From a virus (taxonomy: Duplodnaviria > Heunggongvirae > Uroviricota > Caudoviricetes): 47,880 nt of DNA. The position numbers are program-made. Of the stretch, positions 15,001 to 21,000 are shown in pieces; the stretch's first letter is position 1, and every line of letters starts with the position of its first letter. Location of the stretch: positions 1 to 47,880 of IMG/VR virus record IMGVR_UViG_2880412407_000003; one strand, given 5' to 3'.

Positions 15001-18000
15001 GTTTCATTATCTGTTCTGTTCGACCGATGAGGCCGATATGCTTCAACAGGCGTATTGGCGTCGCGGTGTCCGTGTGGAGCGGAGCCTGAACGCTGATCGT
15101 CTGACCTGGACCGTTTCTGTATATCTTCCTGTTCGTGCACATCTGCCACGGACACATGCCTGCTACCGTCAGCGCGTCTGGAGGTAATGTGCGGGTATTA
15201 CTTCGACCTGTTCTGGTTCCGGAACTCGGGCTGGTGGTCCTTACGCCCGGTCGTGAATCACTGCCGGTTTTTCATTGCGGCAGGGTGCTGGTGGAGCCGG
15301 AACCGAAAAACATGCGGGCGCTGCCATCCGGAGCGGTTCCCACTGTTCGCCAGCCGCTGGTGGAAGACAAATCATTACTGCCATTTTTCAGTGATGAGCG
15401 GGTAAACCGTGCTGCGGGTGGCGCTGGTGCACTGTCTGACTGGTTATTACGTCACGTGAAATCCTGCCAGTGGCCACACGGTGATTATCATCATAGCGAA
15501 ACCGTCATTCACCGTTACGGTACCGGCGCGATGGTGTTGTGCTGGCACTGCGACAACCAGCTGCGGGAGCAGACATCTGATTCACTGGAGCAACTTGCTC
15601 AGCAGAATCTGGCTGCCTGGATGATTGACGTCATCCGTCATGCAATGAATGGCACGCAGGAGCGGGAACTGTCGCTGGCAGAGTTATGCTGGTGGGCGGT
15701 TTGTCATCAGGTGGCTGATGCAATTCCGGAGTCTGTATTGCGTCGTTCGCTGGGATTACCGGTGGAAAAAATCCGCTCCGTATACAGTGAGAGCGACATC
15801 GTACCGGGAGAGCAGACCGCCACCAGCATACTGAAGCAGCGGACAAAAAACATAGCGCCACCGCTTCACGCCCACCAGCCACAAACCACGCCACAGGAAA
15901 AGACGGTAGTAAGCATCGCCGTTGATCCGGAGTCCCCGGAATCTTTCATGAAACGGCCTAAACGTCGTCGCTGGGTTAATGAAAAGTACACGCGCTGGGT
16001 AAAGACACAGCCGTGCGTGTGTTGTGGTAAACCAGCCGACGATCCCCATCACCTGATTGGCCATGGGCAGGGCGGTATGGGGACAAAATCCCACGATATT
16101 TTCACACTACCGTTGTGCCGGGAGCACCACAACGAACTTCATGCTGACCCGCTGGAGTTTGAGAAAAAGTACGGGTCCCAGGTTGAGTTGATTTTTCATT
16201 TTCTTGATCACGCCTTTGCGACTGGCGTGCTTGGGTAAAAGAGGTGACTGATGCCTATAGATTTGGTTTTACCTTACCCGCCAACGGTGAACACCTACTG
16301 GCGTCGTCGTGGCAGTACATATTTTATCTCGGAGGAGGGAAAGCGTTATCGCCGGGCAGTGGCGCTTATTGTTCGCCAGCAGCGGCTGAAATTAAGCCTG
16401 TCCGGAAGGCTGGCGATAAAGGTGATTGCAGAGCCACCGGATAAGCGCCGTCGCGACCTGGACAATATTCTGAAAGCACCGCTGGATGCGCTGACGCATG
16501 CGGGAGTGCTCATTGATGACGAGCAGTTTGATGAAATCAATATTGTACGTGGTCAGCCAGTATCTGGTGGACGACTGGGTGTGAAGATTTACCAAATAAC
16601 GCATGAAGGACAGGCCCAAAAATGAAACTGGAAGATTTACCGAAGTACTATTCACCAAAATCCCCCGGCCTGACAGATGCCTCTGCCTCGACGTCAAAAG
16701 ATGCGCTGAGTATCACTGATGTGATGGCAGCGCAGGGCATGACACAGAATCGGGCTGAGATGGGGTTTTCTGCGTTCCTTGGGAAAATGGGCATTAGTAT
16801 GAATGACAGAGAGCGGGCAACAGAATTGCTGACAGAATATGCACTCAGTCGGTGTGATTGCGTGGCGGCGTTAAGAAAACTCCCGGCAGAAATAAAACCG
16901 GCAGTGATGCGCATTATGGCTTCGTATGCGTTTGAAGATTATGCCCGTAGCGCGGCGAGCAAAAAACAGTGCCCCTGCTGTCACGGAAAAAAATTTATTG
17001 AAAGCGAGGTTTTTACAAACAAGATCCAGTATCCGGATGGTAAGCCGCCAGTATGGGCAAAGTGCACAAAAGGCGTGTATCCGTCTTACTGGGAGGAATG
17101 GAAAAAAGTCAGGGAGGTGGTAAAAGTTGCCTGTCCGGAGTGTGGCGGAAAGGGGGAGGTTTCCACAGCCTGTAAAGATTGTCGTGGGCGCGGTGTTGCC
17201 ATTCATCGTGAAGAGTCGGAAAAACAGGGTGTGCCGGTTTTCAGAAACTGTCAGCGTTGTGGTGGGCGTGGCTATGAAAGATTACCTTCAACGGAGGCAT
17301 TTAATGCCATATGTAATGTAACCGATGCCATATCTCTTGATACATGGAAAAAAACAGTTAAACGTTTTTACGATACGCTGGTGGTGCAGTTTGATATTGA
17401 AGAAGCATGGGCAGAACAACAACTGAAAAAGGTGACCAGATAGCTTTGTTGATTTTTCCCGAATCTGTGGTAAATTTCCCCTAACGATGGGCTTTTTATG
17501 CCTGACGTTAGAAGATTTTTTACACCCCGCCGCCAGGCGGGTTTTTTATGACTGAAATCGCGTCAGTACAGTAAACGCGCTGGTGGCGGTGAATACCGGT
17601 CTTTCAGCTTGCTGGCTTTTTCGACAAGAGTTATTGGTGTGTCACGTTAACCGGAAAAGGGAAAAAGCATGCTAAAACAGCAGGATATGACAGAAACCGC
17701 CAGAGTGGTGTTTAATGAATTAAGCGTTACCGACCCGGCGACAGTCGGGGAGATTGCGCAGAATACTTACCTTTCACGCGAACGCTGCCAGTTAATACTG
17801 ACCCAGCTGGTTATGGCGGGTCTGGCAGACTATCAGTTTGGTTGTTACAGACGCCTTCAGTCCTGAAGGCTTTTTTATTTGTGGTAAATGGGCGGCTGGT
17901 GGGTGTTAGGGGCACTCACCAGCCATCTGCTCATGCGTCTGGATCACAAGCAAACCTCAGGCCCACTGCTTTGCGCAAAAGCAGAATGAGCCTATCAGAG

Positions 18001-21000
18001 ACAGGCTTAATGATCCATGCTTAATACTGTAAAAATATCCAGTTATGAGTTAATCAACGCCGACTGCCTGGAATTTATGCGGTCGTTACCCGAAAATTCT
18101 GTTGACCTGATAGTCACGGACCCGCCGTACTTCAAAGTGAAACCCGCGGACTGGGATAACCAGTGGGTGGGTGATGAAGATTACCTGAAGTGGCTGGACC
18201 AGTGCCTTGCGCAGTTCTGGCGGGTGCTGAAACCAGCCGGAAGTCTTTACCTGTTCTGTGGCCATCGCCTGGCATCTGACACCGAAATCATGATGCGTGA
18301 GCGGTTTAACGTACTGAACCATATCATCTGGGCAAAGCCGTCCGGACGCTGGAACGGGTGTAACAAGGAAAGCCTGCGGGCGTATTTTCCGGCCACAGAG
18401 CGCATTCTGTTCGCGGAACATTATCAGGGGCCGTATCGCCCGAAAGATGATGGCTGTGAGGCGAAGGGCAGGGCACTGAAACAGCATGTGATGGCCCCGC
18501 TGATTGCTTACTTTCGTGATGCGCGCGCTGCCCTGGGGATAACGGCAAAACAGATTGCAGATGTCACAGGAAAGAAAAACATGGTGTCGCACTGGTTCAG
18601 TGCCAGTCAGTGGCAGCTGCCGAACGAAAGCGATTATCTGAAATTACAGGCCCTGTTTGCCCGGGTGGCAGAAGAGAAGCATCAGCGCGGTGAACTGGAA
18701 TGGCCACACCACCAGCTGGTCAGTACATACAGTGAACTGAGCCGACAATATGTCAGCCTGCAGGAAGAGTATAAAACCCTGCGGCGTTATTTTTCCGTAT
18801 CGGCTGCGGTTCCTTATACGGATGTGTGGACGCACAAACCCGTACAGTACTATCCCGGGAAACATCCGTGCGAAAAACCGGCAGAAATGCTGCGGCAGAT
18901 AATCAGTGCGAGCAGTCGTCCGGGTGACCTGATTGCAGATTTTTTCATGGGGTCAGGTTCAACGGTAAAAGCGGCGCTGTCACTGGGACGTCGGGCGATT
19001 GGTGTTGAGCTGGAGACCGGACGTTTTGAGCAGACAGTCAGGGAAGTTCAGGATTTTATCAGTCAGAACGGATGATATTGCAGAATCAGTGACGCACCGT
19101 TATTATTCTGCGCCCGGCCCTTTAGCTCAGTGGTGAGAGCGAGCGACTCATAATCGCCAGGTCGCTGGTTCAAATCCAGCAAGGGCCACCATCACATACC
19201 GCCATTAGCTCATCGGGATAGAGCGCCAGCCTTCGAAGCTGGTTGCGCGGGGTTCGAGTCCTCGATGGCGGTCCATTATCCGTACCCTGCGTTGTTAGCT
19301 CAGCCGGACAGAGCAATTGCCTTCTAAGCAATCGGTCACTGGTTCGAATCCAGTACAACGCACCACACTTATTTTCCAGGCTCGCTTCGGCGGGCCTTTT
19401 TTGTATCTGCGCCCCGCCCGGCGCATATCAACCACAGAGCCTTTCGGGGGGGAGCTTACGGAGTGGTCAGTGTGACTTTCTCTGTGGGCAGATCGCTCCC
19501 GGGCGTTGGCTCACCCACCCAAAGGAACGTCACGATGTTTGGTATTTTTGGTAAAAAAGCCCGCCGAGCGGCAGTGGAAATTAAAAAGTTTGAGAAACGT
19601 GATCTGGCACAGGCGGTTATTAATGCTGCCTACCTGGTGGCCTGTGCAGATGGTGAATGTGAGGCTTCCTAGAAAGCGAAGATCGAACAGGTACTGCGTA
19701 ATCAGCCTGCGCTGTCCGCGTTTACGTCAGAAATTAATGCGATTAGCGCAACCATTATCGGTCAGCTGGATACGAACTTTAAAATTGGTCGTCGTGCGGC
19801 GTTACGTGAGATCGAGGATGTGAAACACGATACGCGTGAAGCGGAAGATGTGCTGGATGTGGCGGTGGCCATTGCGGAGGCAGACGGCGAAATTGAGCCG
19901 GAAGAGCGCAAGGTGCTGGAAGAGATTGCCGGTGTTCTGGGTCTTCGTCTGGAGAATCACCTGTGACGGTAAAACTGCGCCTGGCTGTGGCTGCACTCCT
20001 GCTGTTTCTGGTGGTGATGGTGGATTTCACCAGCAGAATCATGTCGGTGCTGGCGGATGGGGTGCTGGTCTGCGGCATTGTGGTATTGCTGTAGCCGGTG
20101 ATAAAAAGAAACAGCCTGCATAATGCTTGATTTTTTTATTTGCTGTTTATTAAAAATACTACTGCATGGTGAATCCCCCTGTGCGGAGGGGCAATCAGCA
20201 ACCAGGTATATGTGATAATCGCGGATTCAGGTGCTGATACTGAATTCACCGGGAGGCACCCGGCACCATGCAAGAAAAAGAATGTGCATGCAAACATGCC
20301 CCTCTCCGGAGGGGCTTTTTTATGGGTAAAAAATGCCCGAATGGGTTCGGGCAATAGCATGAGATACTGATATTGTTGTGTTGTTATCGTGTGGATTTTA
20401 ACCAGGGTTTATCAGGCTGCGCAACTGCGTGGCCTTTTTTCATTTCTTGGGCTGTAGTCCCCGTGTGTCATTCAGGCTTCCGGACTACAGCCCACTCCAT
20501 ATCTGATTTAATACACTATCCCGGCCGGGAGGAATAATGACATTTAAACATTATGATGTTGTCAGGGCGGCGTCGCCGTCAGACCTTGCGGAAAAGCTGA
20601 CACACAAACTGAAAGAGGGCTGGCAGCCATACGGCGGACCGGTTGCCATTACGCCGTACACACTGATGCAGGCGGTGGCTATTGAAGGAGAGCCACAGGT
20701 CGGCCCTTCATCTGAGCCGGATTGGTACTACGTCATCGTACTGGCCGGGCAATCCAATGCCATGGCTTACGGTGAAGGGCTTCCGCTGCCGGATTCATAC
20801 GATGCTCCGGATCCGCGCATTAAACAGCTGGCGCGCCGCAGTACAGTGACGCCGGGCGGGGCTGCCTGCAGATATAACGATATTATTCCGGCTGACCACT
20901 GTCTGCATGATGTGCAGGATATGAGTACGCTGAATCATCCGAGGGCTGACCTGAGCAAAGGGCAGTACGGCTGTGTCGGCCAGGGGTTACATATTGCCAA

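Follow-up and report, generated by a model that had tools for sequence, protein, structure and literature searches.

Results

Organisation of the locus

We analysed a window of 47,880 nucleotides (nt), which is the whole of the DNA stretch examined here (positions 1 to 47,880 of the IMG/VR virus record IMGVR_UViG_2880412407_000003, Caudoviricetes), and concentrated on the block between the antiterminator gene Q and a cluster of three tRNA genes. In this block a lambda-type late promoter, PR′, and its terminator tR′ are followed by an open reading frame for 65 amino acids (ORF65), a second intrinsic terminator, a conserved leader and the gene of a DNA methyltransferase (methylase) (Table 1). 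The block is the start of the late operon in a decayed lambda-like prophage of Escherichia coli O121:H19, and the chromosomes of this serotype and of related Shiga toxin (Stx)-producing E. coli are 100% identical to the window. A first-pass annotation had described most of these elements, and all of them are present where it had placed them: a hairpin with a T-run resembling tR′ after Q, a small ORF bracketed by two terminators, a methylase of the beta class with a DPPY motif, and three tRNAs, including Ile-CAU and Arg-UCU, which decode rare codons. Both terminators keep their positions in other genera. The middle tRNA, which it had left unnamed, is Arg-UCG.

Table 1. Features of the Q-to-toxin-slot region, with coordinates in the window
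Feature	Position	Strand	Basis
Antiterminator Q gene, 273 amino acids	16622-17443	+	Pfam PF03589 (Antitermination protein Q), 171.8 bits
Lambda-type late promoter PR′	17449-17491	+	resemblance to lambda PR′
Intrinsic terminator tR′	17526-17547 (hairpin 17526-17541 + T6)	+	fold z -3.3
ORF65-linked motif, CTTGCTG ... AGAGTTAT..GT.TGTCA	17608-17644	+	invariant alignment columns
ORF65, 65 amino acids, probable winged-helix protein	17669-17866	+	PHROG 331, dN/dS, sub-threshold Pfam
Second intrinsic terminator	17853-17876 (hairpin 17853-17870 + T6)	+	fold z -3.1
Structured leader, about 130 nt	17888-18016	+	conservation, predicted fold
Beta-class N6-adenine DNA methyltransferase, 352 amino acids	18017-19075	+	PF01555
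ileZ, CAU (Ile2 type)	19116-19191	+	ARAGORN; PGAP/RefSeq tRNA-Ile
argN, Arg-UCG	19199-19275	+	ARAGORN; Stx-phage GenBank name
argO, Arg-UCU	19289-19365	+	ARAGORN; Stx-phage GenBank name
Intrinsic terminator after tRNAs	19378-19403	+	hairpin and fold
stx-equivalent slot	19414-20145	+	homology breakpoints vs Stx2a_1447
TerB-family pseudogene, in-frame TAG 19670-72	19535-19966	+	Pfam PF05099/PF13064 search of slot; RefSeq 'internal stop'
DUF3927 ORF, 43 amino acids, overlapping TerB pseudogene	19963-20094	+	Pfam PF05099/PF13064 search of slot

A conserved leader ahead of the methylase gene

Conservation is higher between the second terminator and the methylase start than in the flanking genes. 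By BLASTN, the leader is present in 45 of about 47 loci in which the methylase is at least 62% identical; these loci come from more than 20 genera and include 14 without ORF65. Between genera the leader is 79-85% identical, compared with 69-72% for the whole methylase gene and 30-38% at its four-fold degenerate sites, which are saturated. In the predicted fold, P1 (17888-17934) is a long hairpin, which is followed by a second domain (17942-18015). At the base of this domain, helix P2 pairs GAUCA (17942-17946) with UGAUC (18011-18015), ending 1 nt before the AUG, and the methylase start region is predicted to be mostly paired. This start has no Shine-Dalgarno match, with a median of -2.4 kcal/mol compared with -5 to -10 kcal/mol for neighbouring genes. 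The leader of the window has a minimum free energy of -62.5 kcal/mol (z -4.05). In the model-fitted alignment of leaders 95% of the cells are paired and 15 of 41 base pairs show double changes, a value that 0 of 500 shuffles reach. Together, these features provide moderate structural support for a leader that would act as RNA.

Rfam, searched at E<=10 with the interval from Q to the methylase, yielded nothing credible; the only overlaps with 17877-18016, to P26 and mir-2008, lay far below the gathering cut-offs. A covariance model detected a divergent leader in a second Pseudocitrobacter locus, in which the helices are kept and the sequence is different, as well as a weak match with compensatory helices on a Vibrio sinus plasmid (locus L066, 3702-3851; E about 0.002). 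The plasmid copy retains the core AAGC..AACC..GGCCCAC and lies about 115 nt 5′ of the apparent start of a methylase homologue. Beside the distant methylase homologues of Proteus, Vibrio ichthyoenteri and Shewanella the covariance model found no leader. Our first RNAalifold model had the inner hairpin in the wrong register and showed little covariation, and it was refined after the covariance model had found the divergent copy.

Two possible coding functions of the leader were considered and rejected. A forward mini-ORF (MGGWWVL...), a candidate leader peptide, has 7 codons in most genera and 33-37 in others, and a recurrent reverse-strand ORF (MGPGSLV...), a candidate conserved peptide, is broken by 1-nt insertions or deletions (indels). 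Such one-base indels in the leader disrupt all reading frames on either strand. In the leader of Enterobacteriaceae bacterium G50 (locus L035, 3875-4024), four substitutions are coordinated such that GCUCAU...CACAAGC becomes a perfect 5-bp helix (CCCGU/ACGGG), and the helix beside the start codon is lost. This alternative pairing hints at part of a switch and is too thin to build on.

The leader is apparently the sole feature of the block that has gone undescribed. A term search of two M.EcoGII papers (PMC5778455, PMC11551740) found no mention of a position behind PR′-tR′, of a second terminator or of a conserved leader.

An orphan methylase related to M.EcoGII

The methylase matches PF01555 with 148.3 bits (cut-off 26.7) over residues 29-340 and the PADLOC model MTase_II with an E-value of 2.9e-157. 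Its catalytic motifs are intact and stand in the order typical of the beta class: DPPY begins the series at residue 35, and FMGSG follows at residue 310. In a BLASTP comparison with the M.EcoGII sequence published in the supplement of PMC11551740, 314 of 349 residues (about 90%) are identical, an underestimate given that the published sequence was machine-read with errors. In the recognition domain (residues 160-237, placed according to PMC11551740) 74 of 78 residues agree. Like M.EcoGII (and M.EcoGI) of E. coli O104:H4 C227-11, the enzyme has DPPY near the N-terminus, FxGxG near the C-terminus and a helix-turn-helix recognition domain in between, and M.EcoGII likewise lies on a cryptic prophage without a partner endonuclease. 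The two differ in length (352 compared with 349 amino acids) and by about 35 substitutions, four of them in the recognition domain. By its sequence, the enzyme belongs to the M.EcoGII clade, and its activity would likewise be non-specific.

PMC5778455 reports that adenine methylation by M.EcoGII is independent of the sequence context and extends from DNA to RNA, that the enzyme is encoded on an apparently cryptic prophage and that its constitutive expression slows growth; neither M.EcoGII nor M.EcoGI leaves a mark in its lysogen. The same paper calls the methylase of phage 1720a-02 very similar to M.EcoGII, and the module of the window is 92.6% identical to this phage at the DNA level. Reconstructed ancestors of the clade were largely non-sequence-specific (PMC11551740).

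As the first-pass annotation had proposed, the methylase has no partner: no endonuclease gene lies nearby (the neighbours are ORF65, the tRNAs, Q, RusA and DUF968), and PADLOC gave no match for ORF65, the DUF968 protein or the TerB fragment. The DUF968 protein has an HNH-like motif, and its gene also lies 5′ of Q in the loci that we examined from Klebsiella and Salmonella. Scanning viral contigs with the methylase added no diversity, since all copies found were 90-100% identical to the E. coli type. Papers on Stx-phage genomes mention the methylase only generically.

Late promoter and terminators

PR′ begins 6 nt past the Q stop codon. It consists of the -35 element TTGATT (17449-17454), a spacer of 16 nt, the extended -10 element TGgTAAATT (17471-17476), the sequence TCCCCT and the element AACGATGGG (17483-17491). 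The corresponding order in lambda is TTGACT, 17 nt, TAAATT, TGACTC and AACGATGGG. The two promoters agree exactly in the -10 hexamer (TAAATT), in the gap of 6 nt and in the 9-base pause element. We take this element to act as the sigma-70 pause element, as in lambda. A consensus promoter scan misses PR′ because it scores 8/12. Since a lambda-type late promoter with AACGATGGG stands just after Q, we identify the first terminator as tR′, at which transcripts from PR′ would stop after about 60-65 nt. The analogous short PR′ RNA of Stx phages is StxS.

Between 16000 and 21000 the window holds 14 terminator-like sites (hairpin plus T-run), compared with 4.7 +/- 2.9 in shuffled sequences. A strong GC hairpin with a T-run lies 100-140 nt 5′ of ORF65 in every genus aligned, and AACGATGGG is also visible in two of the aligned loci. 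Homology to most Stx phages begins exactly at tR′; the Q alleles and the Q-tR′ DNA of Stx2 phages differ from those of the window. In 41 of 51 loci, including loci without ORF65, the leader is preceded at a distance of 3-10 nt by a hairpin with a U-rich tail. In the window this second terminator overlaps the ORF65 stop codon and ends about 10 nt ahead of the leader.

The arrangement resembles the PR′-qut-tR′ region of lambda, which gives rise to 6S RNA, in that a promoter right after Q is followed by an intrinsic terminator. However, tR′ lies 194 nt from the start in lambda and about 60 nt from it in the window, and unlike in lambda the units of the cassette have terminator hairpins of their own. 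The Q protein of lambda belongs to a different family from that of the window (PF03589), and the Q-binding element should therefore differ.

The Q protein of the window also matches PHROG 127 and 25523 ('anti-termination protein Q-like'). It is long, with two stretches that match PF03589 and four zinc-finger repeats of the CxxCxGxG type that resemble the central domain of DnaJ (PF00684, 29.8 bits, below threshold). The Q-to-tR′ interval is another variable cargo site, in which other phages hold extra genes: the Stx2c phage LC727876 has a 141-amino-acid lipoprotein-like ORF (L173, 1629-2054) and Stx2a_1447 two reverse-strand ORFs (L001, 2827-4390) between Q and the conserved terminator.

ORF65 as an optional cassette

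ORF65 matches PHROG 331, a family of unknown function, over residues 1-64 (E 1.9e-37). The median pairwise ratio of nonsynonymous to synonymous substitution rates (dN/dS) over 77 distinct alleles is 0.12, so ORF65 is a real gene under purifying selection. Its family has 333 homologues at E<=0.001, and the named organisms among the 120 listed are all Enterobacterales. The winged-helix Pfam families TrmB (17.4 bits, cut-off 25.6), MarR_2, HTH_24 and DprA_WH all match residues 7-55 below threshold, and a search of NCBIfam matched nothing. An AlphaFold2 model places helices at residues 4-18, 26-30 and 37-49 with low confidence (pLDDT, the predicted score of the local distance difference test, averages 64.5). 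Foldseek comparison of this low-confidence model with the Protein Data Bank (PDB) returned only noise, and sequence and profile searches of the PDB gave nothing significant; the winged-helix assignment therefore derives from the sub-threshold profile matches. There are two allelic types of ORF65, which have the N-terminus and the CQLILTQL..AGL helix in common, while their first two helices and their C-terminal tails are entirely different (L173, 2254-2481; L024, L025, L039-L041, L044). These differences look like swapped specificity regions.

The gene is conserved in related prophages: in those of Buttiauxella, Klebsiella and Salmonella it lies about 150 nt 5′ of the methylase, behind four different Q families. 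It is missing from 14 of 51 species-level loci that keep leader and methylase, with unrelated genes in its place. A motif, CTTGCTG ... AGAGTTATCTGTATGTCA, lies 25-60 nt 5′ of ORF65 in 25 of 30 loci with this gene and in 0 of 14 without it. The motif has no dyad symmetry and could be a weak promoter, an operator or an element of the 5′ untranslated region. A sigma-70 consensus scan between tR′ and the methylase found no promoter, and none upstream of ORF65, for which the best candidate is TTGCTG-17-TATTGG without the -7 T; inspection by eye for sigma-32, sigma-54 and sigma-E consensus sequences upstream of ORF65 found none.

Motif, ORF65 and hairpin thus behave like an optional cassette of the moron type. 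The region 3′ of PR′ is a recognised insertion site for genes (PMC4104026), and like the lambdoid morons described by Juhala et al. 2000, as cited in PMC4104026, ORF65 is optional, stands between conserved units of the late operon and has its own terminator hairpin; it differs from them in that no recognisable sigma-70 promoter was found upstream. The first-pass annotation had called this arrangement a classic moron. The optional gene, the downstream hairpin and the co-travelling motif bear this out in part; with no sigma-70 promoter detected by the scan, autonomous expression of ORF65 would be hypothetical.

tRNAs and the toxin slot

Over 317 nt the tRNA cluster is 94.6% identical to that of Stx2a_1447. 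The genes of the window use AGA 7.7, AGG 5.2, CGA 6.2, CGG 14.1 and AUA 9.0 times per 1000 codons, rates that would be two to three times those typical of E. coli, going by the codon frequencies of K-12. A literature search for ileZ, argN and argO yielded nothing useful.

The first-pass annotation had placed the block in the position of the stx genes. It rightly reported stx to be absent, as tblastn with the Stx2A/B and Stx2eA/B subunits found no match in the window at E<=1, but the position itself has to be revised: in Stx2a, Stx2e and Stx2c phages the block adjoins stx2AB on the upstream side. A megablast comparison of 17444-19365 with phage genomes recovered the whole block, with 87-92% identity, from 20 records that mostly represent Stx2-converting phages. 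The order in Stx2a_1447 (AP012536) and phiP27 (NC_003356), both in this range of identity, is a small ORF annotated as hypothetical or 'TrmB family', the DNA methylase, tRNAs, stx2A and stx2B, where the annotated tRNAs are ileZ, argN and argO in Stx2a_1447 and only ileZ and argO in phiP27. The Stx2c phage LC727876 keeps the order ORF65-methylase-tRNA-stx2 with a divergent ORF65 allele; Stx2c phages are 84.6% identical to the window.

By pairwise BLAST, the homology to Stx2a_1447 runs through the tRNAs to position 19413, which corresponds to 43 nt before the stx2A start. It returns weakly at 20146-20320, and clearly at 20537 in an esterase gene. These breakpoints define 19414-20145 as the toxin slot. 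A sialate-esterase gene follows in Stx2a_1447 as well, and between the tRNA terminator and this gene that phage carries stx2AB whereas the window carries the TerB pseudogene and the DUF3927 ORF. Of the IMG/VR prophage fragments, 58 extend far enough downstream for comparison; 55 of these have the tRNA block, 6 stxA and 8 TerB. The comparison of sequences indicates that the block is a general accessory of the lambda-like/Stx phage group and no substitute for stx.

The Klebsiella prophages of loci L006 and L007 have intact TerB and DUF3927 genes in the equivalent slot. Between slot and esterase (20138-20389) lie two convergent small-RNA genes, for STnc100 (+ strand, 148 bits) and for AgvB (- strand, 96.5 bits), a layout that agrees with the convergent-sRNA arrangement reported 3′ of moron sites (PMC4104026). 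The stretch 20146-20320 is 68% identical to the DNA 3′ of stx2B in Stx2a_1447.

State of the prophage

The RefSeq annotation of the matching stretch describes a lambda-like prophage that is badly decayed. Its early region has been hit by IS66 and its late region by several copies of IS600/IS3 (9900-12700 and 22700-31700 of the window), the endolysin is split, only part of the portal gene is left and frameshifts affect most tail genes. No terminase or major capsid gene is annotated in the RefSeq record of this stretch. The prophage is almost certainly defective, and since most structural genes are broken, the cassette could work in the present strain only in trans, or not at all. In the same annotation the early region holds a RelB/RelE pair and genes for a YdaT-family toxin, a Hok/Gef protein and a YgiW/YdeI stress protein (5800-7000 and 14100-14800 of the window, positions that are approximate conversions from RefSeq coordinates).

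Discussion

Our analysis describes an accessory module of separable units, namely PR′/tR′, an optional ORF65 cassette, a hairpin, a leader with an M.EcoGII-family methylase, tRNAs and a terminator, and we estimate the probability that it works as outlined below at roughly 0.7. In the lysogen, polymerase starting at PR′ would stop at tR′ after about 60 nt, leaving the methylase silent. Upon induction, following the biology of lambda, Q would load onto polymerase paused at AACGATGGG, and the Q-modified enzyme would read through tR′ and the second terminator into ORF65, the methylase, the tRNAs and the lysis and structural genes. The methylase could then modify adenines in any context on replicating phage DNA, as its 90%-identical relative M.EcoGII does, and progeny might be protected against many adenine-methylation-sensitive restriction systems of the next host. 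The anti-restriction role that the first-pass annotation had suggested is therefore plausible. The tRNAs read AUA, AGA/AGG and CGA/CGG codons, and the usage of these codons in the window speaks for this part of the model. Finally, as its conservation and predicted fold suggest, the leader would pair the Shine-Dalgarno-less start and most likely keep translation of a harmful enzyme low or conditional.

Several observations weigh against this interpretation. The covariation in the leader is modest, and two or three divergent members of a model-fitted alignment contribute a large share of it. Both strands of the leader fold about equally well, which would also suit a role at the DNA level. The hairpin before the leader has a weak U-tract in many genera, and the non-specificity of the methylase is extrapolated from an enzyme of 90% identity. 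Intact head and lysis genes are missing from the prophage, and self-protection of progeny therefore cannot operate here.

Structured 5′ leaders that occlude the start sites of harmful genes are known, for example from the fold-back of hok mRNA, and methylase genes of restriction-modification systems can be autoregulated. A bolder reading of the leader is that it represents an undescribed family of structured cis-regulatory RNA that gates translation of the methylase by pairing its start, and that a factor present in lytic growth alone could open it. This factor could be a protein, ribosome traffic, RNA processing or, conceivably, S-adenosylmethionine or S-adenosylhomocysteine. Selection on the leader would be stronger than on the methylase, with which it would travel across the Enterobacterales whatever gene lies upstream. 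This reading is tentative, and we put it at slightly less than even odds. It would share with hok-type leaders a long-range helix over the bases just 5′ of the start codon of a harmful gene. In contrast to these, we identified no conserved leader peptide, antisense RNA or ligand, and no Rfam family is related.

The 130-nt stretch might instead act as DNA, either as an activator-dependent promoter or operator or as a junction that promotes the exchange of modules between phages. The equal folding of its strands would fit such a role, as would a palindrome within it (GCTTTAGCGCTAAAGC in many genera), the swapping of cargo exactly at its 5′ edge and the near-invariance of most helices, about which covariation says little. 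However, the indels are confined to predicted loops, several pairs switch between G-U and A-U or G-C, which keeps pairing only on the transcribed strand, and the divergent Pseudocitrobacter, Tatumella and Vibrio copies hold the helices with different sequences. Moreover, there is no detectable -35/-10 pair in the stretch, and a recombination junction would not need to be conserved above the adjacent protein. We therefore consider a DNA-level role unlikely, and about equally unlikely that ORF65 controls the methylase in the manner of the C proteins of restriction-modification systems, binding near its own gene or the leader and timing expression. The probable winged helix, the strong purifying selection, the conserved upstream motif and the fixed distance of about 150 nt from the methylase, seen in about 37 of 51 species-level loci and in 76 of 76 viral loci of the E. 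coli type, speak for such a controller. Yet unrelated genes take the place of ORF65 in the 14 loci that keep leader and methylase, one Klebsiella locus retains ORF65 with the methylase deleted, the asymmetric motif travels with ORF65 rather than with the methylase, and the structure model of the protein is of low confidence.

Two further explanations fare worse than these. Expression of the methylase in the lysogen as an epigenetic regulator of host genes, a role that the first-pass annotation had also considered and that is known from orphan adenine methylases like Dam and CcrM, is very improbable. The gene lies behind two intrinsic terminators with no promoter detectable by the sigma-70 scan, and its start has no Shine-Dalgarno match and is mostly paired in the predicted fold. 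Its near-identical relative M.EcoGII, like M.EcoGI, leaves the lysogen unmarked, and constitutive expression burdens growth (PMC5778455); moreover, a non-specific enzyme cannot write site-specific marks. Least credible of all is the view that ORF65 and the methylase are cargo that took the place of stx at the site in which an Stx-type phage carries its inserted toxin genes. The block does lie 3′ of Q and PR′, where gene insertion is known (PMC4104026), in a window without stx, but it coexists with stx2 in Stx2a, Stx2e and Stx2c phages, always 5′ of the tRNAs and the toxin genes. The homology breakpoints likewise put the toxin slot behind the tRNAs, and the tRNA block accompanies 55 of the 58 prophage fragments whereas stxA is found in only 6.

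The module itself is known and ordinary: a relative of its enzyme has been characterised, and its tRNAs are already named in Stx-phage records. Its correct mapping matters for the architecture of Stx phages, in which the toxin slot comes after the tRNAs, not before them. M.EcoGII is described as a candidate tool for overcoming restriction barriers that is harmful if constitutive (PMC5778455) and has been engineered for RNA methylation (PMC11551740). The M.EcoGII literature that we found gives no account of how phages keep the enzyme silent. If our interpretation is true, a conserved RNA switch together with insulation by a double terminator would explain this silence, and the leader would provide a small regulatory part and a new family of RNA in genomes that have been studied very thoroughly.

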